Assembly: GCA_963695395.1 (NCBI GenBank)
Contig: CAVOGK010000026.1
Span: forward strand, 60,511 to 124,510
Length of the DNA: 64,000 nucleotides
Source of the DNA: an uncultured Thermoleophilia bacterium
GTDB taxonomy: Bacteria > Actinomycetota > Thermoleophilia > UBA2241
Reading direction: 5' to 3'
The notes under the pieces were generated by a model, which was given only the letters and a program-made list of their open reading frames with translations, was not told the origin of the DNA and searched no databases. The first letter of the stretch is position 1. Each line of letters opens with the position of its first letter. The position numbers were made by a program, and so were the translations under genes. This document shows positions 7,730 through 26,757 of this stretch, piece after piece.

Positions 7730-9136
<1,407 letters not shown>

Positions 9137-9452: not shown

Positions 9453-9599
9453 GATTCACGAGGGCGCCAGGAGTCATCCCGACTGCTTCCGCCCCGCCGC
9501 ACCGAATCAACGCGCGAGCGCTCCCGCTTCTGCGCGCGCCCGCGCCCGCCAGGCCAGCGCAGCGCCCGACCCCCGAGGGCGCCAGGAAGGAGTGCACGC

Positions 9600-11099
9600 A
9601 TGGCTCTCAGAACGCCTGAGGAGTTCATCCAGAGCCTCGCCGATCTGCACCTGCAGATCTACCTGTTCGGCGAGAAGGTCGACGACTACGTCAACCACCC
9701 CGTCATCCGCCCCAGCATCAACTGCATCGCCATGACCTACGAACTCGCGGCCCAGCCCGAGTACGAGGACCTGATGCTGGCGACCAGCCATCTCACCGGG
9801 AAGCGGATCAACCGCTTCTCGCACATCCACCAGTCGACGGAGGATCTGTCCAAGAAGGTCAAGATGCAGCGCCTGCTGGGCCAGAAGACCGGCTCCTGCT
9901 TCCAGCGCTGCGTCGGCATGGATGCGATCAATGCCCTCTACTCGGTCACCTACGAGACCGACCAGGCCAGGGGCACCGAGTACCACGAGCGGTTCAAGAA
10001 GTACGTGCAGTACCTGCAGGACAACGACCTCGTCGCCGACGGCGCCATGACGGACCCCAAGGGCGACCGCTCCCTGCCGCCGCACCAGCAGCCCGACCCG
10101 GACGTGTACGTGCACGTCGTCGAGAGGCGCGATGACGGCATCGTGGTGAGCGGCGCCAAGGCCCACCAGACCGGCGCCTGCAATTCGCACGAGATCATCG
10201 TCATGCCGACGGTGGCGATGCGCGAGGGCGACGAGGATTTCGCGGTGAGCTTCAGCTGTCCGGCCAACGCCGAGGGCGTGTACTACATCTACGGCCGCCA
10301 GAGCTGCGACACACGCAAGTTCGAGGAGTCGGACCTGGACGTCGGCAACATGCGCTACGGCGGCCAGGAAGCGCTGATGGTGTTCGAGAACGTGTTCGTC
10401 CCGTGGGACCGGGTGTTCCTGTGCGGCGAGATCGAGTTCTCCGGCGCGCTCGTCGAGCGCTTCGCCGGCTTCCACCGTCAGAGCTACGGCGGCTGCAAGG
10501 TCGGCGTCGGCGACGTGCTGATCGGCGCCGCCGCGACGGCCGCCGACATGAACGGCGTCGCCAGAGCCAGCCACATCAAGGACAAGCTCATCGAGATGAC
10601 CCACCTCAACGAGACGCTGTTCTCGTGCGGGCTGGCCTGCTCCTACGAGGGCGTCAAGATGCCGGCCGGCAACTACCAGATCGACATGCTGCTGGCCAAC
10701 GTCTGCAAGCAGAACGTGACCCGCTTCCCCTACGAGATCGCCCGCCTGGCCGAGGACATCGCCGGCGGCCTCATGGTCACCATGCCGTCGGCCCAGGACC
10801 TCGCAGACGAGAAGATCGGACCCATCGTCGAGAAGTACTTCGCCGGCCAGTGCGACACGCCGACGATCGACCGCATGCGCGTCCTGCGCCTCATCGAGAA
10901 CCTGACCATCGGCGCCGGCGCCGTCGGCTACCGGACCGAGTCGATGCACGGCGCAGGCTCCCCGCAGGCGCAGCGCATCATGATCGCCCGCCAGTCGAAC
11001 CTGAACCACAAGAAGGATCTGGCCAAGGCCATCGCCGAGGTCGGCAAGCCGTGGGACAAGGCGAAGGTCAAGTCGCCGACCGCGGTCTACCCGGACTGA
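9600..11099 (+). CDS. abfD: 4-hydroxybutyryl-CoA dehydratase / vinylacetyl-CoA isomerase
   Basis: 499 aa, high similarity to Clostridium aminobutyricum AbfD. Motifs IRPSINCIAMTYELA, KVKMQRLLGQKTGSCFQRCVGMDA (Fe-S Cys pair), ESMHGAGSPQAQRIMIAR. Confidence 0.9.
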   Translation: MALRTPEEFIQSLADLHLQIYLFGEKVDDYVNHPVIRPSINCIAMTYELAAQPEYEDLMLATSHLTGKRINRFSHIHQSTEDLSKKVKMQRLLGQKTGSCFQRCVGMDAINALYSVTYETDQARGTEYHERFKKYVQYLQDNDLVADGAMTDPKGDRSLPPHQQPDPDVYVHVVERRDDGIVVSGAKAHQTGACNSHEIIVMPTVAMREGDEDFAVSFSCPANAEGVYYIYGRQSCDTRKFEESDLDVGNMRYGGQEALMVFENVFVPWDRVFLCGEIEFSGALVERFAGFHRQSYGGCKVGVGDVLIGAAATAADMNGVARASHIKDKLIEMTHLNETLFSCGLACSYEGVKMPAGNYQIDMLLANVCKQNVTRFPYEIARLAEDIAGGLMVTMPSAQDLADEKIGPIVEKYFAGQCDTPTIDRMRVLRLIENLTIGAGAVGYRTESMHGAGSPQAQRIMIARQSNLNHKKDLAKAIAEVGKPWDKAKVKSPTAVYPD

Positions 11100-11101
11100 C
11101 C

Positions 11102-11443
11102 ATGACCGACGACGGCACGCCGGCGGAGAAGCGCGTGGAGGTCGTGTACTGCGGGGGCTGCAACCCCCACATCGACCGTTCCGCCGTCGCCGTCGGCCTG
11201 CCCGTCGACGACCCGGAAGTACCCCCGGGGACGACCGTGCACCTCAGCGGCTGTCCCCGGGCGTGCGCGTCCGGGCACCAGCTCGTCGCGGAGGGCGGTG
11301 AGCAGGCCGTACGTGGTGCGGAAGGCGCCCCCTCCGGCCGCCCCGCGGCGCCAGTGGTCGTGATCGCGGGCGAGCTCGTCGACGGCGTCCCCACGCCGTC
11401 CGCCGAGATCGTCCCCACCGTAACGCGCAAGCTCAAGGAGTGA
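11102..11443 (+). CDS. Small Cys-rich protein (113 aa; CGGC...GCPRAC) translationally coupled between abfD and abfT
   Basis: ATG 3 nt after the abfD stop. Stop overlaps the abfT region. Four Cys in two C-x2/3-C pairs. Not recognised as a known family. Confidence 0.45.
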   Translation: MTDDGTPAEKRVEVVYCGGCNPHIDRSAVAVGLPVDDPEVPPGTTVHLSGCPRACASGHQLVAEGGEQAVRGAEGAPSGRPAAPVVVIAGELVDGVPTPSAEIVPTVTRKLKE

Positions 11444-11448
11444 AGGGG

Positions 11449-12780
11449 ATGGACTGGAAAACGGAGTACGCCGGCAAGCGCGTCACGGCCGCCGAGGCCA
11501 TGAAGTGCGTCAGGTCCGGCGACCGCGTCGTGTTCGCACACGCCTGCGGCGAGCCGCTCGACCTCGTCGACGCGCTCGTCGCCCGCGCCGGCGAGCTCGA
11601 GCGCGTCGAGATCAACCACATGGTCGCGATGGGCAAGGGCGAGTACGCCCGGCCTGAGTACGCCGACTCGTTCTTCCACAAGTCTCTGTTCGTCGGCGCC
11701 AGCACCCGCGAGGCGGTGAGAGACGGTCGCGGCGACTACATCCCCGTCTTCTTCAGCGAGATCCCCAAGCTGTTCTGCGAAGGCTATCTGCCGCCGGACG
11801 TGGTACTCGTCCACGTCTCGCCCCCCGACAAGCACGGCTTCTGCTCCTTCGGCATCTCGGTGGACTACACGAAGCCGGCGGCCCAGGTGGCGAAGACGGT
11901 CGTCGCGCAGGTGAACCCCAAGATGCCGCGCACCCACGGCGACTCGTTCATCCACGTGTCCGAGATCGACCACATCGTCGAGAGCGAGCAGGACATCGTC
12001 GAGCTGCGGCCACCGCGGATCGGCCCGGTCGAGGAGGCCATCGGCAAGCACATCGCCGGCCTCGTGGACGACGGCTCCTGCCTGCAGCTCGGCATCGGCG
12101 GCATCCCCGACGCGGTGCTGCTGTTCCTGCACGACAAGAACGATCTCGGCATCCACAGCGAGATGTTCAGCGAGGGCGTCGTCGACCTCTACAACGAGGG
12201 CGTGATCACCAACCGCAACAAGGCGATCAACCGCGACAAGATGACGGCGACCTTCCTCATGGGTACGCGCCGCCTCTACGACTTCGTCGACGACAACCCG
12301 GCCGTCAACATGTTCCCGGTCAACATCACCAACGACCCGTACCTGATCGGCCAGAACGACCGCGTCGTCGCCATCAACTCCGCCCTGCAGGTCGACCTCA
12401 TGGGCCAGGTCGTGGCCGACACGATGGGCGCCAACCAGTTCACCGGCATCGGCGGCCAGGTCGACTTCGTGCGCGGCGCCGCCCGGAGCCGCGACGGCAA
12501 GGCGATCATCGCCTTGCCGTCCACGGCGAAGAAGGGCGCCGTCTCGCGCATCGTGGCGGCGCTCTCGCCGGGCACCGCGGTGACGACCATGCGCGCCGAC
12601 GTCGACTACATCGTCACCGAGCACGGCGTCGCCCACCTGCGCGGCCTCGGGTTGCGCGAGCGCGCCGAGGCCCTCATCGCCATCGCCGATCCGGCGTTCA
12701 GAGACCAGATCCGGAGGGAGGCGGCCGAGGTGTACGGGGTCGGCCGCCTGCCCCATCAATCGCTCACCAAGGAGAGCTGA
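11449..12780 (+). CDS. abfT: 4-hydroxybutyrate CoA-transferase (acetyl-CoA hydrolase/transferase family)
   Basis: MDWKTEYAGKRVTAAEAM... Strong similarity to C. aminobutyricum AbfT/Cat2. AAGGAG SD before the ATG at 11449. The ORF track starts at GTG 11440. Confidence 0.85.
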   Translation: MDWKTEYAGKRVTAAEAMKCVRSGDRVVFAHACGEPLDLVDALVARAGELERVEINHMVAMGKGEYARPEYADSFFHKSLFVGASTREAVRDGRGDYIPVFFSEIPKLFCEGYLPPDVVLVHVSPPDKHGFCSFGISVDYTKPAAQVAKTVVAQVNPKMPRTHGDSFIHVSEIDHIVESEQDIVELRPPRIGPVEEAIGKHIAGLVDDGSCLQLGIGGIPDAVLLFLHDKNDLGIHSEMFSEGVVDLYNEGVITNRNKAINRDKMTATFLMGTRRLYDFVDDNPAVNMFPVNITNDPYLIGQNDRVVAINSALQVDLMGQVVADTMGANQFTGIGGQVDFVRGAARSRDGKAIIALPSTAKKGAVSRIVAALSPGTAVTTMRADVDYIVTEHGVAHLRGLGLRERAEALIAIADPAFRDQIRREAAEVYGVGRLPHQSLTKES

Positions 12781-12785
12781 GAGCC

Positions 12786-14075
12786 ATGGACCACGTGCAC
12801 AACGAACCCGAACCGCGAGTGTTCTCATCCTCCATGGGGGGCCAGCAGGTCCAGAGTCGCCGCGTGGAGCGCAAGATGCGCATCCACCGCCAGCCCAAGA
12901 CGCTCATCACCGGCATCGGCGCGGTGGATCAGCTGGGTGTGGAGGCGAAGAAGCTCAACGGGACCAAGGTCCTCGTCGTCACCGACCAGGGCGTCAGCGA
13001 CTGCGGCATGTGCATCGACGTCGAGCGGCCGCTGGTCGAGGCCGGCCTCGAGGTCGCCTTCTACGACAAGACCGTGCCCGAGCCGCCGATGAGTACCATC
13101 GAGGAGATCGTGCGCATCGTCGAGAAGGGCGGCTACGACCTCATCGTCGGCTTCGGCGGCGGCTCGCCGATCGACGTCGCCAAGGCAGCGGCCGTGCTGC
13201 CCAACACCGGCGACACTGTCTACGACTACGTCGGCATCGACCAGGTGCCTCGCAAGGGCCTGCCGATCATCGCCATCCCCACGACGGCCGGCACCGGCTC
13301 GGAGTGCACGGCGATCGCCATCTTCGCCAACGAGAAGCTCAATGTGAAGCAGGGCCTCGTCAGCCCGTTCCTCATGCCGAACGTGGCGCTCATCGACCCG
13401 GCGCTCACGGTGAGCTGCCCGCCGAACGTCACGGCCGCCTCGGGCATGGACGCCCTCATCCACAACATCGAGGCCTACATCTCGGTGAACGCGACCATGC
13501 ACACCGACTCGCTGGCCTACGAGGGCATCAAGCTCATCAGCCAGAGCATCCGCACCGCCGTGTTCGACGGCAACAACATGTGGGCTCGTGACGCCATGGC
13601 GATGGGCTCGATGATGGGCGGCATCGCCTTCGGCAACGCCGGGGTCGGCGCCGTGCACGCGCTCTCGTATCCCATCGGCGGCATGTTCCACGTGCCGCAC
13701 GGGGTCGCCAACACCATGGTCCTGCCGTGGGCGATGGAGTACAACATGCTCGCCTGTCTGCGCTGGTTCAAGCAGTTCGGTGGAGCGATGGGCGAGAACA
13801 TGATCGGGCTCTCAGACCGCGAGGCCGCCGACAAGACCCTCGCCGCGCTGCGGCTGCTCGCGGACGACCTGGGCGTCCCGCAGTACCTGAGCGACGTCGG
13901 CATCCCCGAGTCGGCCATCCCCGATCTCGTGGAGGGCGCCAAGACGCAGGCGCGCCTGTGGAACAACAACCCGCGCAAGTTCACGCCCGAGGACATGGAG
14001 CAGGTGTACCGCAACATGGCCGTCCGCCCGGGCAGCGAGCCCGTCGGCGAGAAGAAGCCGGGCGCCGGCAAGTAG
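12786..14075 (+). CDS. Iron-containing alcohol dehydrogenase, likely 4-hydroxybutyrate dehydrogenase
   Basis: Fe-ADH GGGS motif GFGGGSPIDVAKAAA; HxxxH region present. AAGGAGAG SD. The start could instead be the internal M at 12876. Confidence 0.8.
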   Translation: MDHVHNEPEPRVFSSSMGGQQVQSRRVERKMRIHRQPKTLITGIGAVDQLGVEAKKLNGTKVLVVTDQGVSDCGMCIDVERPLVEAGLEVAFYDKTVPEPPMSTIEEIVRIVEKGGYDLIVGFGGGSPIDVAKAAAVLPNTGDTVYDYVGIDQVPRKGLPIIAIPTTAGTGSECTAIAIFANEKLNVKQGLVSPFLMPNVALIDPALTVSCPPNVTAASGMDALIHNIEAYISVNATMHTDSLAYEGIKLISQSIRTAVFDGNNMWARDAMAMGSMMGGIAFGNAGVGAVHALSYPIGGMFHVPHGVANTMVLPWAMEYNMLACLRWFKQFGGAMGENMIGLSDREAADKTLAALRLLADDLGVPQYLSDVGIPESAIPDLVEGAKTQARLWNNNPRKFTPEDMEQVYRNMAVRPGSEPVGEKKPGAGK

Positions 14076-14137: not shown

Positions 14138-15415
14138 TCAGTCGGCGCCGGCAGTCACCCGGCTGCCGTGCGGCACGACCAGGCAGCGGGCGCCGGGACC
14201 GGCGCGGTCCAGCGCGGCTCCGATCGCCGCGTCGACGCTCGCGAACGGCGTCATGCACATACTGCGCACGACGTCGTCCGGGAACTCCGAGACGAGGTAC
14301 ACCTCGGCCCGGTCGAGCAGTCCGGCGACGGCCGCCGCCTTGTGCCCGCCGAGCACGAACTCCTGCTGGATGCGGTCGATGAGGACCTGGGGGCTGCCCA
14401 TGCCCGTCATCCACTCCTCGAAGACCTTCTGCCCGAAGCCCTCGCGGCAGCGGGCGACCAGCACGATCACGCCGCCGTCGCGCACCGCCCCGCCGACGTT
14501 GTCGAGCGTCTTCTGCGCCTGGTACAGGTTGATGTCCTTGGGCCTGCCGCCCGGCGAGGCGACGACGACGTCGGCCGCCTCGGGGATGCGCAGGTCGCAG
14601 CGCCGGTCGTAGGCGGCGGCGCCGGCGCGGTGCGCCTCGAGGTAGTGACCGGCCACGGCGCGGACGATCCGCTTGTCCTCGTCGAGCAGCACGTTGAAGA
14701 TGAAGTCGATGCCGATCAGCCCGCCGGCCTCGTCGATGTCCTCGCGCACGGGGTTGCCGTCGATGATGCCGGCCCTCGCCGTCGGCGCCAGCATCATGCT
14801 GTGGTTGTCGCGGATGGCGGCGTAGGAGCAGAGACCCGGGACGACCGCCTTGGCGCCGCCGCTGAAGCCGGCGAAGTAGTGGTACTCGATGTTGCCGGTG
14901 CAGATGCGCAGGTCGGCGTCCAGGTAGGGCTCGAAGACCTCGAGGCGCGTGCCGCGCGAGGTCGTGCCGACCGGCACGCAGCGCGCGGCGTCGAGGTCGA
15001 TCAGGCGGACGCCGCTCGCGGCCACCTCCGTCGCCGACGAGCTGCGCGCTGCTCCTCGGGCGTGTGCGCCCGGTGGCCGCCGAGCGCGAAGAGGATGCTG
15101 ACGTCCTCCGGCGCGAGCGGCGCGAGCTCCTCGAGCAGCGCCGGCAGGAAGCGGTACGACGGGCACGGCCTGGTGACGTCGCTGACGACGATCGCGGCCG
15201 CTGCGCGCCGAGGCCGCGAGCTCCGAGAGGCGCGGCGCGCCGATGGGCTCCGCCAGGGCGCGCCTGATCTCGGCCTGCTCGTCCTCGGCCGACGGCGCCG
15301 CCGGCGGAGGCTCCTCTTCGCCCAGGCCGCAGCCGGGGCCGATGACGGTGACCTGCAGGTCGTCGGGCAGGACGGCGTCGAGAGCGCCGTCGCCGTACGG
15401 GATGGAGACCTTCAT
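14138..15415 (-). CDS. LarA-like (nickel-pincer lactate racemase family, DUF2088) protein, two internal frameshifts
   Basis: N-terminus MKVSIPYGDGALDAVLPDD. An alternative frame restores the VVSDVTRPCPS (DxTRP) motif. The 837-aa ORF 14138-16651 is a read-through artefact. Confidence 0.6.
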   Translation of the reverse strand: MKVSIPYGDGALDAVLPDDLQVTVIGPGCGLGEEEPPPAAPSAEDEQAEIRRALAEPIGAPRLSELAASARSGRDRRQRRHQAVPVVPLPAGAARGARAARAGGRQHPLRARRPPGAHARGAARSSSATEVAASGVRLIDLDAARCVPVGTTSRGTRLEVFEPYLDADLRICTGNIEYHYFAGFSGGAKAVVPGLCSYAAIRDNHSMMLAPTARAGIIDGNPVREDIDEAGGLIGIDFIFNVLLDEDKRIVRAVAGHYLEAHRAGAAAYDRRCDLRIPEAADVVVASPGGRPKDINLYQAQKTLDNVGGAVRDGGVIVLVARCREGFGQKVFEEWMTGMGSPQVLIDRIQQEFVLGGHKAAAVAGLLDRAEVYLVSEFPDDVVRSMCMTPFASVDAAIGAALDRAGPGARCLVVPHGSRVTAGAD

Positions 15416-15432
15416 CCGCCGCTCCCGGGCCG

Positions 15433-16686
15433 TCAGCCGAAGCGGACGGCCGACTCCTTGAGCGCTTCGATGACCGGCATCGGCTTGCCGCTGAGGAACT
15501 GCACCATGGCGCCGCCGGCGGTGCACACGTAGTCGAAGCGGCCGGCGAGTCCGAAGCGGTTCATGGCCGCGACGCTGTCGCCGCCGCCGAGGGCGCTGAA
15601 GGCGGCCGAGTCGGCCATCGCCTCCCAGATCGCCCGCGTGCCGTACTCCGTCTCCGCCTGCTCGAACACGCCGGCCGGGCCGTTGACGAACACGGTGCCG
15701 GCGGCGGCGATGCGGGCGGCGTAGTCGGCCGCGGCCGCGTGACCGATGTCCACGAGCGGCGCGTCCACCGGCAGGTCCGCGACGGCGACCTCGCCTGCGC
15801 TCCCCGTCCTCGCACCCAGGCGAGGTCGGCCGGCAGCACGATCTTGTCGCCGTGCGCGGCGAGGATCGCCCGCGACTCCTCGATGAACGGCTCCAGCTGG
15901 CTCGCACTGGATGAACTCCATGGACGGCTCGCCGATGTCCACGCCGCTCGCCGCCAGCATGACGTTGGCGACCAGGCCGGCGGTGAGCACGGTGTCGACG
16001 ACGCCGTCGGCAAGCGCGGCGGCCATCATCGGGAACGCCTCCTGGATCTTGGTGCCGCCGAGGACGAAGACGCACGGCCGGGCCGGATCCTCGCGCAGGC
16101 GAGCCAGGTTCTCGTACTCGCGCTCGAACAGGCGGCCCATCGCCGACGGCAGCAGCTGCTCGAAGCCGACGAGGGTGGGCTGTGAGCGGTGCGCGGCCGC
16201 GAAGGCGTCGCAGACGTAGAGGTCGGCGAGCGGCGCCAGCTTGCGCACCACGAGCGTCTTCGCCTGGTCCTCCGGCGAGAGCTCGAGCTTGCGCTCGAAC
16301 AGGGTGAGCTCCTCGGCGCAGAAGCGCACGTTGTCGAGGAGCAGGACGTCGCCGCCTGAGAGCCGGCCGATCGCGTCGCGCGCGGCCGGCCCGCAGACGT
16401 CGTCGATGAACGCGACGGCATGGCCGGTGAGCTCGCTCATCACGGCCGCGTGCGGCTCGGTGGAGGCGTAGTTGTGGTACTCGAGGTCGCCGCCCTGGTG
16501 GGCGAGCAGGACGACCCGGGCGCCGGCGTCCGCGAGCTCGCGGACGGTGGGCGCGCAGCCGCGGAGCCGCGTCACGTCGCGCAGCCCGCCGGTCTCCGGG
16601 TCGAGCGGCGCGTTGATGTCCACGCGGCAGAGGACGGTCTTGCCGCCCCACGCGAAGTCGTCCAGCGTGTGGATGCCGTACTTCAC
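15433..16686 (-). CDS. pgk: Phosphoglycerate kinase, archaeal type, with two internal frameshifts
   Basis: (V)KYGIHTLDDFAWGGKTVLCRVDINAPLDPETGG, VCDAFAAAHRSQPTLVGF and GGGAMVQFLSGKPMPVIEALK match archaeal PGKs rather than bacterial ones. The middle segment is recovered in the frame of ORF 15561-16013. GTGA overlap with the gap stop. Confidence 0.8.
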   Translation of the reverse strand: MKYGIHTLDDFAWGGKTVLCRVDINAPLDPETGGLRDVTRLRGCAPTVRELADAGARVVLLAHQGGDLEYHNYASTEPHAAVMSELTGHAVAFIDDVCGPAARDAIGRLSGGDVLLLDNVRFCAEELTLFERKLELSPEDQAKTLVVRKLAPLADLYVCDAFAAAHRSQPTLVGFEQLLPSAMGRLFEREYENLARLREDPARPCVFVLGGTKIQEAFPMMAAALADGVVDTVLTAGLVANVMLAASGVDIGEPSMEFIQCEPAGAVHRGVAGDPRRARRQDRAAGRPRLGARTGSAGEVAVADLPVDAPLVDIGHAAAADYAARIAAAGTVFVNGPAGVFEQAETEYGTRAIWEAMADSAAFSALGGGDSVAAMNRFGLAGRFDYVCTAGGAMVQFLSGKPMPVIEALKESAVRFG

Positions 16687-17747
16687 GTGGGTCGCCTCTC
16701 CCCTGCGCCGATCAGGCGAGCCCGAGGTACTTGTTCGTGAGCCCCACGGCCTCGAGGCGGTCGGTCTGCATGCTGAGCGCCGCGCGCACGGCGTCCACGG
16801 TCTCGGGGATCACCACCGACTCCTGCGGGATGTTGATCGCGAACATGAACTCGCGGCCGCTCTTGGCGATGGTCTCGTCGAAGACGGCGATGTCGTACAT
16901 GTCGGCGCGCTTGTTGCCGAGGTCGCGGGCGTAGCGGAACAGCGCCGCGTTGCTGTTGAAGCCGTCGGCGATCTTGACGGGCCGGATGCGCGGGTGCGCC
17001 GCGAAGAGCTCGAGCGCCCGCTCCTTGCTGACGTCGCGCCTTGGTGGTGGCGATCACGTTGATGATGTGGCCGTGCGTGGTGGGCACGTGCACGAGCAGG
17101 CCGGTGGCCTCGATGTGCGGCATGATCGTCATCAGGTCGAGCGCCTGGTGGTTCGGGACGGGCTCGACCTGAGCGACGTCGACGAGCCCGCGGTGCGTGT
17201 CGCCGGGGTCGGCGACGCGGCGCACGATGGTGACGATGACGCGCTCCACGCCGACCTCGCGGTCGAGGCAGTCGACGGCGCGGATGAGGCCGGTGGTGTT
17301 GCAGCTGGTCAGCTTGAGGTAGTCCCGCCCGACGCCCTTCTCGTAGTTGGCGTAGCCGTGGAAGAAGACGTCGACGATGTCGTTCTTCTCGCCGCCCTGG
17401 AAGACGGCCTTGACGCCCTTCGCCTGGTAGAGCTCCTTGTTCTTGCGCCCCACGCCGCCGGGCGAGGAGTCGAGCACGATGTCGACCTTGCCGAGCAGGT
17501 CGTCCATGGTGCCGGTGACCGGGATGCCGACCTCGTCGAAGGCGGCCTTCTGGCCGGCCTCGACCACGTACAGGTCGTAGGGCATGCCCGACTCACACAG
17601 GGCGCGCGTCGAGAGCGTCGGCGCGACGTCGACGACGCCGACCAGCTCCATGTCGCCCTGCAGCGCCACGCCGTCGGCGAGACGCTGGCCGATGACGCCG
17701 TAGCCGACGACGCCCACTCTTGGCTTGCTCATGTTCCGCTCCTTCAA
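16683..17747 (-). CDS. gap: Glyceraldehyde-3-phosphate dehydrogenase, type II (archaeal type), C-terminal frameshift(s)
   Basis: VGVVGYGVIGQRLADGV, AVFQGGEK, LTSCNTTGL and VTIVRRVADP match archaeal GAPDH. The C-terminal part continues in the frame of ORF 16712-16900. Confidence 0.8.
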   Translation of the reverse strand: MKERNMSKPRVGVVGYGVIGQRLADGVALQGDMELVGVVDVAPTLSTRALCESGMPYDLYVVEAGQKAAFDEVGIPVTGTMDDLLGKVDIVLDSSPGGVGRKNKELYQAKGVKAVFQGGEKNDIVDVFFHGYANYEKGVGRDYLKLTSCNTTGLIRAVDCLDREVGVERVIVTIVRRVADPGDTHRGLVDVAQVEPVPNHQALDLMTIMPHIEATGLLVHVPTTHGHIINVIATTKARRQQGAGARALRGAPAHPARQDRRRLQQQRGAVPLRPRPRQQARRHVRHRRLRRDHRQERPRVHVRDQHPAGVGGDPRDRGRRARGAQHADRPPRGRGAHEQVPRARLIGAGERRPT

Positions 17748-17771: not shown

Positions 17772-19170
17772 TCAGTAGCCCAGTTCCTTCTCGACGACGC
17801 CGATCGACTCGTCGAGCACGTTCACGACGGTGTCGATCTGCTCCTTGCTGATGATGAACGGCGGCGCGACCGCGTGCACGTGGCCGCCGCCCAGCAGGCG
17901 CACGAAGACGCCGCGCTTGAACGCCTCGTCGCGGATCTTCGCGGCGACGCCCTGCGCCGGCGCGAACCACTCACGCGTCTCCTTGTCCTTGACGTACTCG
18001 ATGCCGGCCACGAGGCCGACGCCGCGCACGTCGCCGACGATCGGGTGCGCGAGCAGCGTGGCGAGGCCGTCCTGCAGGTACGGACCGAGCTCGGCGCAGC
18101 GCTCGACCAGTTTCTCGCGCTCGACGATCTCGAGGTTGGCGATGCCGGCGGCGCAGCACAGCGGGTGACCCATGTAGGTGGCGCCGCTCATGAACGCCTC
18201 GCCCGGGGCCGCCGAGGAAGGCGTCGAACACGTGGTCCTTGGCGCCCACGGCGCCCAGCGGCAGGTAGCCGGAGGAGAGGCCCTTGGCCAGCGTGATCAG
18301 GTCGGGGTCGGAGCCGAACTGCTCGAAGCCGAACCAGGTGCCGCTGCGCCCGAAGCCGGTGATCACCTCGTCGTTGATCACGAGCACCTCGTTGGCCTTG
18401 CAGATCTCGTTGACCATCGGCCAGTACTCGGGCGGCGGCGGGATCACGCCGCCGGTGCCGATCATCGTCTCGCCGAGCATGGTGCCGACGTTCTCGGGGC
18501 CGTAGAAGGCGATCTCCCCTGCGACCTGCGTGGCGCACTCCATCTTGCAGTCGTCGCCGTAGGTCTTGTTCCACTCGCAGCGGTAGCAGTACGGCGCGCC
18601 GAGCTTGATGAAGCCGGGCAGCAGGGGCTCGAACTTGGCGCGGTTCACGGTGAGGCCCTGGGCGCTGACGCTGGTCATGGTCGTGCCGTGGTACGAGCGG
18701 TCGCGGAACATGACCATGTACTTGGTGCCTTTGCCCTTGTTGCGCCAGTACTGACGCGCCATCTTGACCGCGGTCTCGACCGACTCCCCGCCGCCGAGCG
18801 TGAGAAAGACGTGGTTCAGATCGCCGGGCATGTGCTCCGCGACCTTGGCGGCGAGCTTGATGGCCGGCTCGTTGCCGATCTGGAAGATGTGGTAGATGGC
18901 CAGCTTCTGCATCTGGGCGTTGATGGCGTCGTAGATCTCCTGGCGGCCGTGGCCGACGTTCACCGTCCACAGGCTGGCGAAGGCGTCGATGTACTCGTTG
19001 CCGTCGCTGTCGTAGACGAGCGCGCCCTCGGCGCGCTCCATGATCACCGGCTTGAGGCCCTCCATCTGCGTGAAGGGGGGCCAGAGGTGCTCGAAGGACT
19101 CGTCCTTCATCCCACCGTCGGCCGCGTGTTCCTTGTCTGCCATGAGTCCTTCCTCTCCGCTGGTATCCAC
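17772..19170 (-). CDS. Class III (omega/BioA-like) aminotransferase, one frameshift near 18190-18240
   Basis: HLWPPFTQM, PLP-lysine region EVLVINDEVITGFGRSGTWFG. C-terminal part in ORF 17772-18191. Confidence 0.8.
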
Positions 19171-19218: not shown

Positions 19219-20649
19219 TCACGTGAGGACGACGCCGCAGACCTCCGCCAGAGCAGCCACTTGGGCATCGGACAACGCCGGTCTCCAGTCGGCGCGAGCC
19301 TGCAACATGGCTGTCACGCGCTCGCGGGCGGCGTCGACCTCGTCGCGGTCCTCCGCCTTCCAGGCGTCGTACGAAAGACGTGTCGAGACGACCGGCGCGA
19401 ACTGCTCGCCGGCGCGGATGCGCCGCGTGGTCTCCTTCTCGGCCAGGAAATGCCCGCCCGGACCGACCCTCTCGATCATCTCGCCGAGGATCTCCTCGTG
19501 CGAGATGGTCACGTCGGCCAGCAGCCGGCGGATGATGCCCACGATCTCGCAGTCGATGACGATCTGCGGCAGGTACAGCAGGTCGACAGAGTCGAGCATG
19601 CCGACGCCACCGCTGAGCACGTCGGCCCCGGCGGCGGCTGAGGTCAACCCCTTCAGGGCCTTGTCGTACCCAGCCTGGATGCCGGGGTACTTGGCCTCCG
19701 TGCCCAGGCCGGGCACCGCGACAGGCACGCCCAGGAAGTGCCCCATCTCGATGCTGGCGGCGGCCATGAGGTGAGATTCGGGCGCTCCGTACGCCACGTG
19801 TGCGGAGCGCATGTCCATGACGTTGGAGGAGGCGCCGAACACCAGGCGCGCGCCGGGGGCCATTGACTGCATCGCCGTGGCCACGCCGAGGAACTCGGCT
19901 ACCGCCTGCGTGACGCCGGCGGCGACGGTGATCGGCGTCGTCGCCCCGGACATCGGGATCGTGTAGACCTCGATCGGCACACCGTGCACGGCCATGGCGG
20001 CATGGAAGTCCAGCGCACCGCCGTCCACCTGCAGCGGGGAGGCCGCGGTGAGCAGCGTGCTGAACCGCGGTCGCTCCCTGAACGCTTCCTCGCCATCGGC
20101 GACGATGTCCCCGATGCGCAGCAGCGGTTCGACCTGCGACGGGCAATCGACGAAGGTGACGTGCTTGTCCGTGTTCGTGAGCATGGTGAAGTAGCCGGTG
20201 AGCTCGCGGACATCGAGAGGCACGTCGTTGGCGGTCACCGTCGTCCAGACCAGGTCGACCTCCGGCGAGGCGTCGAGCAGCGCCGTGGCCTTACGCAGGT
20301 CGTCGAGCGTCGAGAGCCGGCGTTCGCCGCTCTCGTCGTCCAGCACGAAGGCGCCGCAACCGGAGGAGCAGAAGTGCGAGCCCTCCCCTTCGGCGAGCAG
20401 AACGTCCTGCGCCGGCGTGGCGCCCGCCATGACGATCTCGCGCGGGCAGTGGTCGACGGCCTCCCGGACGAGGTCCGGTGGGAAGCGGACGATGCCGCTC
20501 TCGTGGTCGACCGCCGCGCCTTGCGCGGCGAGCGCGGCGAGTGCCCGGGAGCCGGCGAGACGCATGCCGACGCGCTCGAGCAGGGCCAGGGCCTCCCGGA
20601 CGATGAGGTCCTTCTCTTCCTGGCTCAGCCAGGTGGTCCGCTGTCGCAC
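19219..20649 (-). CDS. MttB-superfamily (trimethylamine methyltransferase family, COG5598) corrinoid-dependent methyltransferase, non-pyrrolysine paralog
   Basis: 476 aa. Family-typical segments PESHLMAAASIEMGHFLGVP, AGYDKALKGLTSAAAGADVLSGGVGMLDS. No internal stop. Confidence 0.8.
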   Translation of the reverse strand: MRQRTTWLSQEEKDLIVREALALLERVGMRLAGSRALAALAAQGAAVDHESGIVRFPPDLVREAVDHCPREIVMAGATPAQDVLLAEGEGSHFCSSGCGAFVLDDESGERRLSTLDDLRKATALLDASPEVDLVWTTVTANDVPLDVRELTGYFTMLTNTDKHVTFVDCPSQVEPLLRIGDIVADGEEAFRERPRFSTLLTAASPLQVDGGALDFHAAMAVHGVPIEVYTIPMSGATTPITVAAGVTQAVAEFLGVATAMQSMAPGARLVFGASSNVMDMRSAHVAYGAPESHLMAAASIEMGHFLGVPVAVPGLGTEAKYPGIQAGYDKALKGLTSAAAGADVLSGGVGMLDSVDLLYLPQIVIDCEIVGIIRRLLADVTISHEEILGEMIERVGPGGHFLAEKETTRRIRAGEQFAPVVSTRLSYDAWKAEDRDEVDAARERVTAMLQARADWRPALSDAQVAALAEVCGVVLT

Positions 20650-20829: not shown

Positions 20830-22653
20830 TCAGACCGTCGGCGTGTCCGACAGCAGCTTCTTGGTGTAGTCGGCCTGCGGGTCGTCGAGGACGGCGTCCA
20901 CGGCGCCGTACTCCACAATACGCCCCTCGTTCATCACCGCGACCTCCTGGGAGATGCTGCGCACCAGGGCCAGGTTGTGGGTGACGAACAGCATCGAGAG
21001 GCCCATGTCGCGCTGCAGGCGCGGCGAGCAGTTCGATGATCGCCGCCTGCACGGAGACGTCGAGCCAGGAGGTCACCTCGTCGCAGATCAGCACCGTCGG
21101 CTCCGCCGCCAGACCGCGAGCGATGGCCACCCGCTGCCGCTCCCCGCCGGAGAGCTGGTCCGGGTAGCGGCTGAGCAGCGACGCGTCCAGGGCCACCTGC
21201 TCGAGCGCCTGCTCCATCCGCCCCTCCATCTCGCTGCGCGAGAGGTCGAAGAAGACCCGGAGCGGCTGCGAGAGGATCTGGCCGATCGTCTTGCGCGGGT
21301 TGAGCGAGCTGTAGGGGCTCTGGAAGATGTACTGGATCGCCTGCCGGGTCGCCCGCGGCCGGCCGCGGGCGTCGCGCGAGAGCGGCTTGCCCATGAACTC
21401 GATGTCGCCGACGATCTTGTGCTGATGCAGTCCGGCGATGCAGCGCGCCAGGGTCGTCTTGCCGGACCCGGACTCACCGACCAGGGAGAGGCAGCGCCGC
21501 TCGCTGAGATGAGTGGTGATGTCGTGCAGCGTCTCCTTGTGCTGGTAGAACGCCTTCACGTCGCGCACGCTGATGACCTGCTTCTCCTGGGTTCCCGGAG
21601 CAGAGAGCGACTTGTCGCGCAGCAAGAAGTCCCGCTCGGCCGCCGCGGCATTCACTTCCTTGTGGCGCCAGCAGCGCACGCGGTGCCCGGGGCTCACCTC
21701 CTCCACGGGGGGATACTCCTCCCCGCAGTGGTCGACCGCCCAATCGCAGCGCGGCGTGAAGGCACAGCCGCTGGGCCGCCTGCCCGGGCGGGGGGCCCAG
21801 CCCGGGATGCCGCGCAGGGCACGCTCGCCGGTGATATCGGGGATGGACGCGAGCAGCTTGCGCGTGTAGGGGTGCCGGCCGGACGCGAAGAGCTCGTCGC
21901 GGGTGCCGATCTCGACGACCCGGCCGGCGTACATCACGGCGATGCGGTCGGCGAGGTTGGAGACCACGGCGAGGTCGTGGGTGATGTAGAGCGCCGCGAC
22001 GCCGTACGACCTCGTGAGGTCGCGCACGGTGTCGAGCACGTGCGCCTGGGTGGTCACGTCGAGGGCGGTGGTCGGCTCGTCGAGGACGATGACCTTGGGC
22101 CGGTTGGCGAAGGCCATGGCGATGGCGACGCGCTGCTGCTGTCCGCCGGAGAGCTGGTGCGGATACCTGCGCAGGAACGCCCTGTCGGACGGCAGCAGGA
22201 CCTCGGCCATCATCTCGGCGCGGCGCGCCTCGCGATCTTCCGTCGACGAGCCGAAGCCGTGCACCTCGAGGATCTCCAGGAGCTGCGTGCCGATGCGCAG
22301 CGCCGGGTTGAGCGCCGCCGAGGAGTCCTGCGGCACGTAGCTGATCTGGCCGCCGCGGACGGCGCGCAGCGCCGCCGGGCCCATGGCAAGGACGTCCTCT
22401 CCGTCGATCTCCACCTGTCCGCCGGCGATCTTCGCGCCGCGGCGCTGGTAGTCGAGCAGGCTGGTCCCGACCGTGGTCTTGCCCGAGGCGGATTCGCCGA
22501 CCAGGCCCAGCACCTCACCGCGGTGGATCACCATCGAGACGTCGTCGTCGATGTCCACGCCCGAGGGATCGAAGACGATGCGCAGCCCCTCGACGCGCAG
22601 GACGACGTCAGGCTCCACGCTGGTCGCGGGACCGGCAGTGGTCGTGGACTCCA
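20830..22653 (-). CDS. Fused double ABC ATPase of an Opp/Dpp-type transporter (OppD-OppF fusion), one frameshift near 21020
   Basis: MESTTTAGP... Two Walker A sites ([18 protein letters not shown]) and two LSGG signatures. The true C-terminus ...[20 protein letters not shown] is in an alternate frame ending near 20830. The 1104-aa ORF is an artefact. Confidence 0.75.
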
Positions 22654-23574
22654 TCACCCCACCCCCGTGTCGCGTTCGATGCCGATCAGCGCGCGTCCCA
22701 GACCGTCGGCGATCAGGTTGGTGCCGATCGTCAGGATGCCGATCAGCAGCACCGGCACGAACACCGGCCACGGCTGGATGACGATGCCGATGCGGTTCTC
22801 GTTGATCATGAGGCCCCAGTCGGCCGCCGGTGGCTGCATGCCGAAGCCGAGGAACGACAGCGCCGCGATGAGGCCGATCGAGTACGTCAGGCGCAGGCCG
22901 AACTCGACCAGCAGCGGGCTGGTGATGCTCGGCATGATCTCGTTGAAGAGGATCTTCCAGCGCGCGATGCCGAACGCCTCGGCCGCGCGCACGAAGTCGC
23001 GCTGCGCGACCTCGAGCGTCGCGGAGCGCGCCACGCGCGCGATGCGCGGCGCGTGCCCGATGCCGACCATGAGCACGATCAGCCAGAGCCGCGGGCCGAG
23101 GATGGAGACGAAGAGCAGCGTGAGGACGATCTGCGGGAAGGCGAGCACGACGTCCAGGATGCGCATGACCGACTCGTCGACCCAGCGCCGCGCGTAGCCG
23201 GTGATGAGGCCCAGGGTGACGCCGAGGGAGAGGCCGATCACGGTGGCCGCGAGGGCGAGCAGGATGACCGTGCGCCCGCCGTAGAGCACGCGCGTGAGCA
23301 CGTCGTGGCCGATGTAGTCGCTGCCCAGCCACATCTTCGGGATGGCCGGTGGGGAGAAGGGCGGCGCCACGAACTCGGTCGGTGAGTACGGAGCGATCCA
23401 GGGGCCGACGACCGCGAGCAGCACGATGAAGCCGAAGATGCCGACGCCGATCTTGGTGCGCCCCATGCCCCAGGCCTCGCGAAGGGTCATCAGCCACTCG
23501 GAGTGGCGACGCTCGGGCAGGATGACGGCCGGCTCGGCCAGCTCGTCGGCGCTGATCATGATCTCGTCGCTCAT
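22654..23574 (-). CDS. oppC: Oligopeptide/dipeptide ABC transporter permease
   Basis: 306 aa with multiple TM segments. ATG/TGA abutment with the ATPase gene. Confidence 0.85.
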   Translation of the reverse strand: MSDEIMISADELAEPAVILPERRHSEWLMTLREAWGMGRTKIGVGIFGFIVLLAVVGPWIAPYSPTEFVAPPFSPPAIPKMWLGSDYIGHDVLTRVLYGGRTVILLALAATVIGLSLGVTLGLITGYARRWVDESVMRILDVVLAFPQIVLTLLFVSILGPRLWLIVLMVGIGHAPRIARVARSATLEVAQRDFVRAAEAFGIARWKILFNEIMPSITSPLLVEFGLRLTYSIGLIAALSFLGFGMQPPAADWGLMINENRIGIVIQPWPVFVPVLLIGILTIGTNLIADGLGRALIGIERDTGVG

Positions 23575-24536
23575 CGCAGGCCTGTCCGTAGTCGCGGGCT
23601 GACAAGGATGGTGAGGATGTCGGCCGTCAGGTTGGCCAACACGTACACGGCCGCGATGATCAGGCAGATGGCCTGCACCATGGGCATGTCGCGGTTGGCG
23701 ACGGCGTCGACCAGGGCCGAGCCGATGCCGGGAAAGGCGAAGAGGTACTCGACCACGACGACGCCCCCGGCCAGCCAGGCGAGGTTGAGCGCCGTGACCT
23801 GGAGCGCCGGGCCGAGGGCGTTCGGGAGCGCGTGCCGGTTGAGCACGAGGCGCTCGGGCAGCCCCTTGAGCCGCGCCATCATCACGTACTCGCTCTCGAG
23901 CACCTCGATGGTGCTGGCACGCAGGATGCGCGTGATGTACGGCGCCACCGCCAGCGTCAACGTGAGCGCGGGCAGGATGAACAGCTCGATTTGCTGATAG
24001 ATGGGAACGCCCGGGTCGACGCGCGAGACCGCAGGCAGCCAGTTGAAGACCTGGGTCGCGAACAGCAGGATCAGGACGATGCCGATGACGAACTCCGGCA
24101 GGGCGGCAAGCGAGAGGCTGCCGACAGTCACGGTGGTGTCGAACTTGCTGTCTCTTCGTAACGCGGTGAGGGAGCCCAGAAGCAGGGAGATGGGAATGCT
24201 GAGCAGGGCGGCAATCGCGACCAGTATGAAGGTGTTGATGACGCGCCGCGTGAGGAGCTCGGTGACCGGCTTGTCCTGCACGAGCGAGTTCCCGAGGTCG
24301 CCGGTGACGACGCCGCCGAGCCAGCTCAGGTACTGCTCGGCGATCGGCTTGTTCAGTCCGAGTTGCTCCCGCAGGGCCTCGTAGCGGGCCTTTTCCGCCG
24401 CTTCCTTGCCGAGGATCGCCCGGGCCGTGTCGCCGGGCAGGGCCTGGGTCGCGGCGAACACGACGACCGAGACCAGGAACAACGTGAGGACACCCAAGCC
24501 GATCCGGATCAGGATCAGCTTCAGGAGCGGTGGCAT
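23571..24536 (-). CDS. oppB: Oligopeptide/dipeptide ABC transporter permease
   Basis: 321 aa. MPPLLKLILIRIGLGVLTLFLV..., typical OppB/DppB. Confidence 0.85.
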   Translation of the reverse strand: MPPLLKLILIRIGLGVLTLFLVSVVVFAATQALPGDTARAILGKEAAEKARYEALREQLGLNKPIAEQYLSWLGGVVTGDLGNSLVQDKPVTELLTRRVINTFILVAIAALLSIPISLLLGSLTALRRDSKFDTTVTVGSLSLAALPEFVIGIVLILLFATQVFNWLPAVSRVDPGVPIYQQIELFILPALTLTLAVAPYITRILRASTIEVLESEYVMMARLKGLPERLVLNRHALPNALGPALQVTALNLAWLAGGVVVVEYLFAFPGIGSALVDAVANRDMPMVQAICLIIAAVYVLANLTADILTILVSPRLRTGLR

Positions 24537-26746: not shown

Positions 26747-26757
26747 ACTTCACCTTC

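Follow-up and report, generated by a model that had tools for sequence, protein, structure and literature searches.

Why does a bacterial genome carry a gap-pgk gene pair that looks archaeal, and what does the pair do there? The question arises from a 64-kb stretch of DNA (here called the window; positions are counted from its first letter). A preliminary description had offered two explanations: that the contig is archaeal, or that a bacterium had acquired an archaeal gluconeogenic cassette.

Gene identities and bacterial origin of the locus

The first gene of the pair, which we call gap2, encodes a type II (archaeal-type) GAPDH homologue, as had been proposed. With a frameshift repaired, Gap2 scores 387.6 bits on the NCBIfam profile NF003251 for type II GAPDH (cutoff 185) and 299.9 bits on TIGR01546 (cutoff 232.9). 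Its strong PDB matches are four archaeal type II GAPDH structures only, the best type I match having E = 1e-4, and the active-site motif SCNTT is present. The gene starts at an ATG (17732-17730) behind the Shine-Dalgarno (SD) sequence GAAGGAG (17745-17739) and stops at a TGA (16714-16712), giving the C-terminus ...TNKYLGLA. A 1-nt insertion at about 17036-17038, which is absent from 12/12 relatives, breaks this frame. The open reading frame (ORF) at 16683-17747 that was first taken as gap is a chimera of the two frames that result; its type II identity stands, while its boundaries do not.

The second gene, pgk, runs from a GTG at 16686 to a TGA at 15435-15433 and matches Pfam PF00162 over its full length (349.5 bits, profile positions 1-379 of 379). 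The protein matched 46 PGKs in the PDB; the best is archaeal (P. horikoshii 2CUN, 278 bits) and the best bacterial one, from Geobacillus, scores 207 bits, which bears out its description as archaeal-like. The nucleotide-binding and catalytic motifs GG-K, GP-GVFE and GGGDS appear in the window protein as LGGTK, NGPAGVFE and GGGDS. The two genes had been said to overlap by GTGA (16686-16683). That stop belongs to the shifted gap frame, which rules out translational coupling through GTGA; the true spacer is 25 nt long and contains the SD-like GGGGAGAGG, and spacers in close relatives measure about 25-50 nt.

The neighbouring genes (Table 1) form a tightly spaced series on the same strand. The MttB-superfamily gene lies 48 nt upstream of the aminotransferase, whose stop is 39 nt upstream of the gap2 start, and the larA ATG at 15415 lies 17 nt past the pgk stop. 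The LarA-like gene and the aminotransferase, between which the preliminary description saw the pair wedged, are not unrelated neighbours; aminotransferase, gap, pgk and LarA are a conserved unit. The divergent Lrp/AsnC-family protein is a candidate regulator of the operon. The consensus sigma70 promoter reported earlier has no counterpart around the operon: no sigma-70-like promoter was found in 13900-21000. Downstream, three plus-strand genes converge on the minus-strand operon. Together with the GDH gene they look like a GABA/4-hydroxybutyrate-type set, which we treat as context of the gap2 unit with no membership implied. No transketolase or iol genes occur in the window.

Table 1. Features of the gap2 operon and its surroundings in the window
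Feature	Position	Strand	Basis
GDH, intact	7733-9136	-	
4-Hydroxybutyryl-CoA dehydratase-like HpaB-family protein, intact	9432-11096	+	
4-Hydroxybutyrate-type CoA transferase, intact	11440-12780	+	
Fe-alcohol dehydrogenase, intact	12786-14075	+	
LarA-family (nickel-pincer nucleotide) 2-hydroxyacid racemase homologue	14138..15415	-	NCBIfam LarAH6 best match
pgk, archaeal-like phosphoglycerate kinase homologue	15433..16686	-	Pfam PF00162, PDB match
gap2-pgk spacer	16687..16711	-	Sequence read; SD-like element
gap2, type II GAPDH homologue	16712..17732	-	NCBIfam profile, PDB matches, frame comparison
Class III (omega-) aminotransferase	17772..19170	-	Profile search, relatives
MttB-superfamily methyltransferase	19219..20649	-	TIGR02369 332 bits, below cutoff 525; syntenic in close relatives
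Opp/Dpp-type ABC transporter: fused ATPases, two permeases, family-5 solute-binding protein	20830..26700	-	
Lrp/AsnC-family regulator, divergent	26725..27342	+	Pfam HTH_AsnC-type and AsnC_trans_reg; syntenic in relatives L001 and L016

The contig that carries the pair is bacterial. About 20 kb (about 7.5-27 kb of the window) is syntenic at 85-93% nucleotide identity with metagenome-assembled genomes (MAGs), the majority carrying the label Thermoleophilia or Actinomycetota, and in profile searches the other window genes are those of ordinary bacterial metabolism. A genome scan confirmed 558 relatives; the best 80 of the 558 are all bacterial, come from many phyla, and share 66-97% amino acid identity. 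Identity between the Gap2 of this clade and archaeal GAPDHs is only 37-40%, whereas archaeal GAPDHs are 54-55% identical among themselves. Any transfer from archaea would therefore be old and followed by spread among bacteria; judged from these comparisons, the pair is not a recent archaeal import. A search of a representative library that carries no taxonomy, with only the C-terminal 107 residues of Gap2 as query, showed a compact group at 55-80% identity apart from matches at 30-40%.

That the contig is archaeal and the genes a native archaeal gluconeogenic pair, a reading favoured by the family resemblance of the two enzymes and nothing else, is ruled out for practical purposes by the synteny, the taxonomy of the relatives and the low identity to archaeal GAPDHs. 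Of the two explanations first offered, a bacterium with an archaeal-type gap-pgk pair thus survives, and the acquisition of an archaeal gluconeogenic cassette finds no support. Haloarchaea reach 65-70% GC, so high GC was in any case a weak argument against an archaeal origin. Within the window, no tRNA was found, no ribosomal proteins were among the ORFs scanned, PYLIS_3 was the only family in an Rfam scan, and there is no canonical gapA-pgk-tpiA locus or type I GAPDH. The reading that best explains the locus as a whole is that the host is a soil-type actinobacterium (Thermoleophilia) to which the pair is native.

Frameshifts in the operon

Eight frameshifting 1-nt insertions affect four genes of the operon. 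Besides the one in gap2, there are three in pgk (about 15908-15910, 15805-15813, and 15796), three in larA (about 15198-15202, 15045-15050, and 15028-15036) and one in the aminotransferase gene (about 18202-18205), which splits it into two ORFs. The three pgk insertions garble about 37 codons, after which the frame is restored. About 11 further window-specific 1-nt insertions lie in the ABC transporter genes. The eight insertions mostly occur without homopolymer extension.

These frameshifts are most likely assembly indel errors and not real pseudogenisation. With the insertions removed, dN/dS against the syntenic relative L003 is 0.07-0.29 in the affected genes (0.08 in gap2), as low as the 0.12-0.21 of intact neighbours. 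Low dN/dS and the bias toward insertions make long-standing pseudogenes unlikely. We consider it improbable, too, that the whole operon, from transporter to LarA, was recently inactivated in this genome. That the frameshifts are real is suggested by their confinement, which uniform sequencing error would not lead one to expect: at least 19 window-specific 1-nt insertions fall between 15.0 and 26.8 kb, a region that amounts to one minus-strand operon. The adjoining 8 kb has none, the genes at 7733..14075 being free of frameshifts relative to L003, and Pfam domains elsewhere in the window look complete. Bacterial pseudogenes decay mainly through deletion, however, so that the excess of insertions among the window-specific frameshifting indels (19/22, with 3 deletions) counts against recent inactivation. 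Recent inactivation is also disfavoured by the dN/dS values, by the insertion triplets in pgk and in larA, each of which restores the frame, and by the origin of several of the closest relatives, which are long-read MAGs, some with indels of their own.

Clade-wide gene context and residue changes

Together the relatives form a large and compact clade, widely distributed in bacteria, in which homologues of type II GAPDH are paired with homologues of archaeal-like PGK. The pgk gene directly follows gap2 in 67/69 loci with enough flanking sequence. Among close loci the aminotransferase adjoins gap2 in 18/19 and LarA is present in 12/13. Across the loci, the pair is accompanied either by a malate racemase of LarA type, in some cases together with malic enzyme, or by a tartrate/D-malate dehydrogenase homologue (best match tartrate dehydrogenase TIGR02089, 439 bits), and further by a split transketolase or acetoin-type E1, often with iolG/E/D/B. 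The racemase and the dehydrogenase exclude each other: the 30 distant loci with long flanks include 19 with LarA, four with the tartrate/D-malate dehydrogenase-like gene and none with both, and LarA is absent from all seven of the best 80 loci that have the dehydrogenase-like gene. In the same survey, malic enzyme was found in 10 loci, transketolase N-terminal or E1-alpha genes in 23, and iol genes in 11. LarA, D-malate dehydrogenase and malic enzyme are all missing nearby in 7/30 of the well-flanked distant loci, which counts against the module proposed below.

The best-resolved operon, L034 of C. magnum, has the order SBP-ABC-ABC-ME-gap2-pgk-tktN-tktC-iolB-iolD-iolE-iolG-LarA. It shares iolG, iolE, iolD and iolB, which lead to 5-dehydro-2-deoxy-D-gluconate, with the canonical myo-inositol pathway (B. 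subtilis type). The canonical kinase, aldolase and malonate-semialdehyde dehydrogenase (IolC, IolJ, and IolA) were not found in L034, which has split transketolase, gap2, pgk, LarA and malic enzyme instead.

We compared Gap2 with the archaeal type II GAPDHs of M. fervidus (1CF2), P. horikoshii (2CZC), M. jannaschii (2YYY), and S. solfataricus (1B7G). They have in common the SCNTT cysteine, the catalytic histidine, an RR-ADP motif and overall length, and C144 and H222 (the catalytic Cys and His) are invariant in an alignment of 75 clade members and three archaeal structures. Apart from identity level, Gap2 differs from the archaeal enzymes in being bacterial, in its catabolic operons, and at defined positions. 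The lysine at the end of beta-2 in three archaeal enzymes (Lys35 equivalent) is aspartate in 100% of the bacterial clade, which by the Rossmann-fold rule would favour NAD+ and an oxidative role. On sequence grounds, then, the archaeal mark of NADP(H) preference and anabolic function is absent from clade Gap2; this change and the catabolic character of the conserved neighbours speak against a gluconeogenic role. In the 75 bacterial members, the archaeal-invariant SHHGPD has become (N/S)HQA-D (with a form NHQALD), QAVHQES has become INIPQES, and LMH-H has become HGH-I. The substitutions H196Q, G197A and Q299I/A300N/H302P are each kept in at least 95% of clade members, so the archaeal active-site motifs are lost. 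In archaeal GAPDH, SHHGPD and QAVHQES presumably take part in anion binding.

PGK shows a similar mixture. Binding of 3-phosphoglycerate (3-PG) involves Asp23, Asn25, Arg38, His62, Arg65, Arg122 and Arg170 (yeast/human numbering). Equivalents of D23, N25, R38, H62, R122 and R170 are kept in 66/66 clade PGKs, while Arg65 is lost in all 66, where G, D or S is followed by D or T. At that position P. horikoshii has K and Geobacillus has R. The clade retains six of the seven residues. The window PGK shares with 2CUN the archaeal-type insertion after LxNxRF and the HQG motif; it differs in overall sequence (about 39% identity) and, with the rest of the clade, in the replacement of 2CUN's lysine in the 3-PG phosphate-binding patch.

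The best PDB match of the Thermoleophilia LarA orthologue is the malate racemase Mar2 (6D6Z, 342 bits), a LarAH6 enzyme of T. thermosaccharolyticum. The window LarA, frameshifted as it is, scores 389 bits on LarAH6 over its C-terminal two thirds; the intact L003 orthologue scores 476, slightly under the cutoff of 500, and the gap2-linked LarA of C. magnum scores 592. Equivalents of the catalytic and NPN-binding residues (D, R, H, H, K, H, and K) are present as in Mar2, and so are YQAQK and the GGHK lysine. The signature of malate-specific LarA comprises an HYK loop, Q-K and the GHK lysine (PMC7583248). All 30 gap2-linked LarAs carry HYF in place of the HYK of Mar2, which with the score of 476 against 500 suggests that their substrate may be malate-like rather than malate.

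A proposed D-malate module and its alternatives

We propose that gap2-pgk, native to its host, belongs to a widespread bacterial clade in which the pair serves catabolism with a yield of ATP, and not glycolysis or gluconeogenesis, a view we hold with confidence that is evenly balanced. Somewhat more tentatively, Gap2 would be a phosphorylating D-malate-semialdehyde dehydrogenase and the PGK homologue a D-malyl-phosphate:ADP phosphotransferase. Joined by a dedicated transketolase and by malate racemase or D-malate dehydrogenase, the two would constitute an ATP-conserving lower branch of inositol catabolism in several phyla, including many anaerobes; the Thermoleophilia version would be fed by the aminotransferase from an amine of the 4-amino-3-hydroxybutyrate or carnitine type. 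Gene identities, the bacterial origin, the distribution of the clade, operon conservation, residue differences and frameshift positions are observed; substrate, direction and aldehyde source we infer, and for the substrate we rely on the gene neighbourhood, on stereochemistry and on a small number of altered residues.

D-malate semialdehyde (3-hydroxy-4-oxobutanoate) is the carboxylate analogue of D-glyceraldehyde 3-phosphate (D-GAP), a 2-hydroxy-aldehyde with a distal carboxylate. Gap2 would convert it, with NAD+ and phosphate, to D-malyl phosphate, from which the PGK homologue would transfer the phosphate to ADP, giving D-malate and ATP. A racemase or D-malate dehydrogenase would be needed because the product is D-malate. 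The LarA-type racemase would turn D-malate into L-malate, which malic enzyme and central metabolism would take up; where a lineage lacks LarA, D-malate would be decarboxylated in one step by the tartrate/D-malate dehydrogenase homologue. For many loci, in Bacillota, Chloroflexota and elsewhere, transketolase may release the aldehyde by cleaving 5-dehydro-2-deoxy-D-gluconate, which IolB produces; this would be an undescribed lower inositol branch in place of IolC/IolJ/IolA. Transketolase requires the D-threo configuration, and the ketol end of this compound has it. Its cleavage would leave OHC-CHOH-CH2-COO- in the D configuration, so that oxidation would yield (R)-malate, which is D-malate. For the window, the aldehyde may come from the upstream class III aminotransferase acting on what we guess to be a 4-amino-3-hydroxybutyrate-type amine. 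Its own origin may be a quaternary amine handled by the ABC importer and the MttB-family methyltransferase next to it; against this route, the MttB enzymes known so far take just one methyl group off such compounds.

Parts of this scheme have precedents. Aspartokinase with aspartate-semialdehyde dehydrogenase, and the engineered malate kinase/malate-semialdehyde dehydrogenase route to 2,4-dihydroxybutyrate, follow the same acyl-phosphate logic for C4 dicarboxylate semialdehydes. Their proteins belong to unrelated families, their target is the C4 carboxylate, the one distal to the substituent, and their reactions are reductive; the reactions proposed here concern the carboxylate beside the hydroxyl and are oxidative and ATP-yielding. 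In the sulfo-TK (sulfoquinovose) and apiose pathways, a dedicated split transketolase of a catabolic operon cuts an unphosphorylated or unusual ketose; the substrates are others, and no substrate-level phosphorylation of GAPDH/PGK type follows.

The first alternative, unlikely in our estimation, is that the enzymes are a true GAPDH and PGK acting on D-GAP, 1,3-bisphosphoglycerate (1,3-BPG) and 3-PG, either as an extra, operon-borne copy of lower glycolysis that takes GAP from the neighbouring transketolase or in gluconeogenesis, with LarA and malic enzyme unrelated. Transketolase normally frees GAP from xylulose-5-P. Gap2 scores above the equivalog cutoffs curated for type II GAPDH, PGK matches its profile in full, and both the catalytic residues (Cys and His) and most of those that bind 3-PG and ATP are kept, so that real GAP/1,3-BPG activity is conceivable. 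GAP metabolism, however, does not explain the mutual exclusion of LarA and D-malate dehydrogenase or the frequent presence of malic enzyme, and the iol/transketolase operon L034 has no sugar kinase. The loss of the Arg65 equivalent and the changed archaeal-invariant GAPDH motifs point the same way. So does P. thermosuccinogenes, which has two active type I GAPDHs beside a type II enzyme, CDQ83_07070, the sole bacterial one tested, that showed no GAP-dependent activity (PMC6543838). The assay was on E. coli extracts, so the negative result could reflect poor expression.

It is still less probable that the pair acts on another 2-hydroxy-aldehyde and 2-hydroxy acid: L-GAP to L-3-phosphoglycerate (with LarA leading to D-3-PG), lactaldehyde to lactate, or glyceraldehyde to glycerate. 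Glycerate is among the many 2-hydroxy acids that are racemised by LarA enzymes (PMC11770544). One residue of the substrate loop distinguishes the linked LarA from Mar2, and the aminotransferase could equally yield lactaldehyde from aminopropanol. Against such substrates, malate in particular is indicated by two of the neighbours, malic enzyme and the tartrate/D-malate dehydrogenase homologue; the linked LarA retains the GGHK lysine, for which binding of the second carboxylate of malate has been proposed; and iol/transketolase operons offer no evident source of L-GAP.

Reviews still draw a clean line between archaeal and bacterial GAPDH and PGK (PMC12525153), and the study of P. thermosuccinogenes considered type II GAPDH rare in bacteria, with no functional evidence for it there (PMC6543838). 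We found no description of the gap2-pgk operon or its function in the literature on bacterial type II GAPDH, LarA, malate semialdehyde and inositol. The linkage of gap2-pgk to LarA is not discussed in the LarA literature that we found; Table S1 of one study lists a PGK association for LarAH group 4 (3/18), unremarked there (PMC7583248).

The conserved operon context gives a concrete and cheaply testable candidate function to two housekeeping-looking genes that annotation pipelines call glycolytic, and metabolic reconstructions would miscount gap2-pgk as glycolysis or gluconeogenesis. The D-malate module would amount to a new substrate-level phosphorylation reaction and may point to a missing route of inositol fermentation. 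For the malate racemases, the largest LarA group, it would also indicate where D-malate comes from in the cell.

The gap2-pgk pair and its bacterial clade

Four closely packed genes occupy 14.1-19.2 kb of the minus strand and encode an aminotransferase, a type II GAPDH homologue (gap2), a PGK homologue and a LarA-family racemase homologue (see the table). The ORF at 16683-17747 was ruled out as the gap gene by three-frame translation, since it joins two frames: one frame encodes the N-terminal 230 residues of Gap2, the next its C-terminal 107 (RDVSKERALELF...TNKYLGLA). Because of the true gap2 stop and the pgk GTG start, the genes are separated by a 25-nt spacer, which includes GGGGAGAGG. The preliminary description had the two genes overlapping by GTGA, which relied on a wrong-frame stop codon; the enzymes it recognized are real, but the overlap and the ORF boundaries were artefacts.

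Features of the window discussed in the text
Feature	Position	Strand	Remarks
Glutamate dehydrogenase; HpaB-family (AbfD-like, 4-hydroxybutyryl-CoA dehydratase-like) protein; CoA-transferase (4-hydroxybutyrate/butyryl-CoA:acetate)-like; Fe-alcohol dehydrogenase	7733-14075		
LarA-family racemase homologue	14138-15415	-	
PGK homologue	15433-16686	-	GTG start at 16686
Type II GAPDH homologue, gap2	ATG 17732 to TGA 16714-16712	-	GAAGGAG six bases upstream of ATG
Class III aminotransferase	17772-19170	-	
1-nt insertions in larA	~15198, 15045, 15028		window-specific
1-nt insertions in pgk	~15908, 15805-15813, 15796		window-specific
1-nt insertion in aminotransferase	~18202		window-specific
Lrp/AsnC-family regulator	26725-27342	+	
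URO-D-like domain fused with two B12-binding domains	33489-35477	-	corrinoid protein-methyltransferase fusion
Family-5 solute-binding protein	35892-37670	-	
Lrp/AsnC-family regulator	37743-38396	+	
Second MttB-family gene	38525-40084	-	
Lrp/AsnC-family regulator	56471-57025	-	
FAA-hydrolase-family gene	57192-57899	+	
Separate URO-D-like methyltransferase	58102-59196	-	
MttB-family gene	63732-63831	-	stretch with in-frame TAG at 63831-63829 and PYLIS_3 match; the gene runs off window end

The repaired Gap2 scores 387.6 bits on the NCBIfam 'type II GAPDH' model (cutoff 185) and 299.9 bits on TIGR01546 (cutoff 232.9), and its strong PDB matches are four archaeal type II enzymes only. The repaired PGK covers the entire Pfam PGK model (349.5 bits), and its best PDB match is P. 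horikoshii PGK (278 bits, against at most 207 bits for bacterial and eukaryotic PGKs). Because of these profile and PDB matches, the label 'archaeal-type' is correct for both enzymes, as first described. They belong by homology to the same families as the archaeal type II GAPDH and PGK, but lack several archaeal-defining features. Gap2 is 37-40% identical to archaeal GAPDHs, which are 54-55% identical among themselves; the PGK shares 39% identity with its P. horikoshii counterpart and 35% with that of Geobacillus. Public annotation already names such bacterial genes 'type II GAPDH'.

A genome scan, with one genome per prokaryotic species, confirmed GAPDH relatives at 558 loci, and the best 80 of these are all bacterial. 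About 20 are from MAGs, mostly labelled Thermoleophilia or Actinomycetota, with 82-97% amino acid identity to the window GAPDH. At 66-75% are Bacillota (Moorella, Clostridium magnum, C. pascui, C. peptidivorans), Anaerolineae, Dehalococcoidales, Atribacterota, Aminicenantes, Planctomycetota, Desulfovibrionaceae, Spirochaetia and others. The contig is bacterial, because about 7.5-27 kb of the window is collinear with Thermoleophilia MAGs at 85-93% nucleotide identity. When the Gap2 C-terminal fragment was compared with 50%-identity representatives, a compact group at 55-80% was followed by a gap and then by matches at 30-40%. Such comparisons indicate that the gap2-pgk clade is old, distinct and disseminated among bacteria, and no fresh archaeal import. 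The bacterial host, one of the two options first offered, is thus upheld by collinearity, while a recent acquisition from archaea does not agree with 37-40% identity.

Two side observations concern these relatives. A 4.5-kb contig labelled as a Deltaproteobacteria MAG (L004, JBLMXT010000253.1) is 91% identical to the window in nucleotides, shares the collinear arrangement of the Thermoleophilia loci and was probably binned wrongly. Three type-II-GAPDH-like proteins of normal length in the representative library (P0163, P0177 and P0242) are without the SCNTT cysteine motif, which is replaced by LKLPIGMV, LQLPQPSL and LKISNYNI, respectively; these may be relatives of the bacterial clade that have lost catalysis or taken on another role.

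Single-base insertions in the operon

The frame break in gap2 is due to one extra base at about 17036-17038, which is missing from all relatives aligned (five, then twelve loci). Similar insertions are found in pgk, larA and the aminotransferase gene. The 6.5-27.5 kb examined has 22 frameshifting indels that are specific to the window, and 19 are insertions. All of these 1-nt insertions, at least 19, are inside 15028-26772, a single minus-strand operon that runs from a solute-binding protein gene to larA and includes the transporter, MttB, aminotransferase, gap2 and pgk genes. No window-specific frameshifting indel was found in the well-aligned adjacent 9.6-15.0 kb. Several insertions occur in twos or threes and together bring the reading frame back, and the eight in the aminotransferase, gap2, pgk and larA genes mostly do not lengthen homopolymer runs.

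When the inserted bases are taken out, comparison with the short-read MAG L003 gives a dN/dS of 0.065 for the aminotransferase gene, 0.080 for gap2, 0.146 for larA and 0.288 for pgk; four intact neighbour genes give 0.12-0.21. The insertion-dominated spectrum, together with purifying selection that has not slackened, favours consensus errors where the metagenome assembly is poorly resolved. A very recent inactivation of the operon by real frameshifts is a less likely alternative, which the limitation of the insertions to one operon would fit, but the affected genes are under purifying selection like their intact neighbours.

Other catabolic genes of the window

The genes at 7733-14075 resemble a GABA-to-crotonyl-CoA fermentation set. 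The window is rich in genes for corrinoid-dependent methyl-amine demethylation, with two more MttB genes farther along besides that in the gap2 operon. An Rfam PYLIS_3 match (64.5 bits, gathering score 38) lies on the minus strand at the in-frame TAG of the last of these and just beyond it in the downstream direction; the gene resembles one for a trimethylamine methyltransferase of the pyrrolysine type, here in a Thermoleophilia-like genome. All three Lrp/AsnC regulators in the 64 kb adjoin amine or amino-acid catabolic genes. The FAA-hydrolase-family gene has counterparts (83-87% nucleotide identity) close downstream of larA in four related loci (L001, L004, L016 and L030); here it is 40 kb away.

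Conserved neighbours and a proposed malate-semialdehyde model

Of 69 loci whose downstream sequence reaches far enough, 67 have pgk directly 3' of gap2. In the 80 loci, all ORFs no more than about 10 kb away were clustered and cluster representatives annotated. Recurring in these neighbourhoods are a LarA homologue; an NAD(P) malic enzyme; a split transketolase (N and C subunits) or an acetoin-dehydrogenase-type E1-alpha/E1-beta/E2/E3 set with LipA/LipB; iolG, iolE, iolD and iolB; sugar ABC transporters; and LacI regulators. Among 30 distant loci with flanks of at least 6-7 kb on each side, transketolase-N or E1-alpha is present in 23, LarA in 19, iol genes in 11 and malic enzyme in 10. An isopropylmalate-DH-family gene, best matched by tartrate dehydrogenase TIGR02089 (439 bits, cutoff 470), is present in four, and none of the 30 combines it with LarA. 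All seven loci with a tartrate/D-malate-DH-like gene beside gap2-pgk (L018, L022, L026, L039, L045, L054, L056) are likewise without LarA. Such catabolic neighbours speak against the gluconeogenic role first proposed, and we are highly confident that gap2-pgk is a native bacterial pair within a catabolic module linked to LarA.

The LarA adjoining gap2-pgk in C. magnum scores 592 bits on the curated LarAH6 malate-racemase model (cutoff 500); the Thermoleophilia orthologue scores 476, its best structure match being the Mar2 crystal structure. C. magnum DSM 2767 has two gap2-pgk copies (L034 and L036) in operons of differing type, one with iolGEDB and the split transketolase, the other with acetoin-dehydrogenase-like E1-alpha/E1-beta/E2/E3, malic enzyme and LarA. 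The L034 genes share one strand and are separated by minimal spacers, in the order SBP-ABC-ABC-malic enzyme-gap2-pgk-tktN-tktC-iolB-iolD-iolE-iolG-LarA; iolC, iolJ and iolA were not found in this operon.

The product of IolG, IolE, IolD and IolB is 5-dehydro-2-deoxy-D-gluconate, on which the FBP-aldolase homologue IolJ acts once it is phosphorylated. Its ketol end has the D-threo configuration, as in xylulose or fructose, and it is therefore a legitimate transketolase donor. Transketolase would remove a C2 unit to leave OHC-CH(OH)-CH2-COO-, an analogue of D-GAP in which a carboxymethyl group replaces CH2-O-phosphate. Gap2 would act on this aldehyde by GAPDH-type thioester formation and phosphorolysis, and PGK-type transfer to ADP would yield ATP and D-malate, (R)-malate. 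D-malate would then be metabolized by a racemase and malic enzyme, or by a decarboxylating D-malate dehydrogenase. A D-malate product would thus need either a racemase or a D-malate dehydrogenase, the two mutually exclusive partners seen, and the model would account for all the recurrent operon genes and for the missing sugar kinase.

The active sites were also compared. In all 66 clade PGKs the residues for the carboxylate, the hydroxyl and catalysis are kept, but the Arg/Lys65 equivalent in the phosphate-binding patch is gone, and the next position is acidic or Thr. All clade Gap2 proteins keep the Cys and His, have fixed changes in motifs invariant across three archaeal structures, and have Asp, not Lys, at the end of beta-2. 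These changes would fit an altered substrate and the oxidative direction. We give the malate-semialdehyde model an even chance of being right.

Directly upstream of gap2 in the window is an omega-aminotransferase gene, which 18 of 19 close relatives share at this place; farther upstream come MttB-family methyltransferase and Opp/Dpp-type ABC importer genes and a divergent gene for an Lrp/AsnC regulator. Here, in the most economical extension of the model, a 4-amino-3-hydroxybutyrate-type amine might be transaminated to the same aldehyde; carbon derived from (R)-carnitine would end in D-malate, and hence a racemase would be required. No other part of the model is as speculative as this transamination.

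Our literature search turned up no account of the gap2-pgk operon, nor of an inositol branch that depends on transketolase, nor of a role in malate-semialdehyde metabolism. One paper remarks on the oddity and inactivity of bacterial type II GAPDH: the sole enzyme assayed had no GAPDH activity (PMC6543838). A LarAH-PGK association (3/18) is given, uncommented, in a supplementary table of a LarA superfamily paper (PMC7583248). The genomic context of gap2-pgk leads to a functional prediction that is fairly specific and can be tested.
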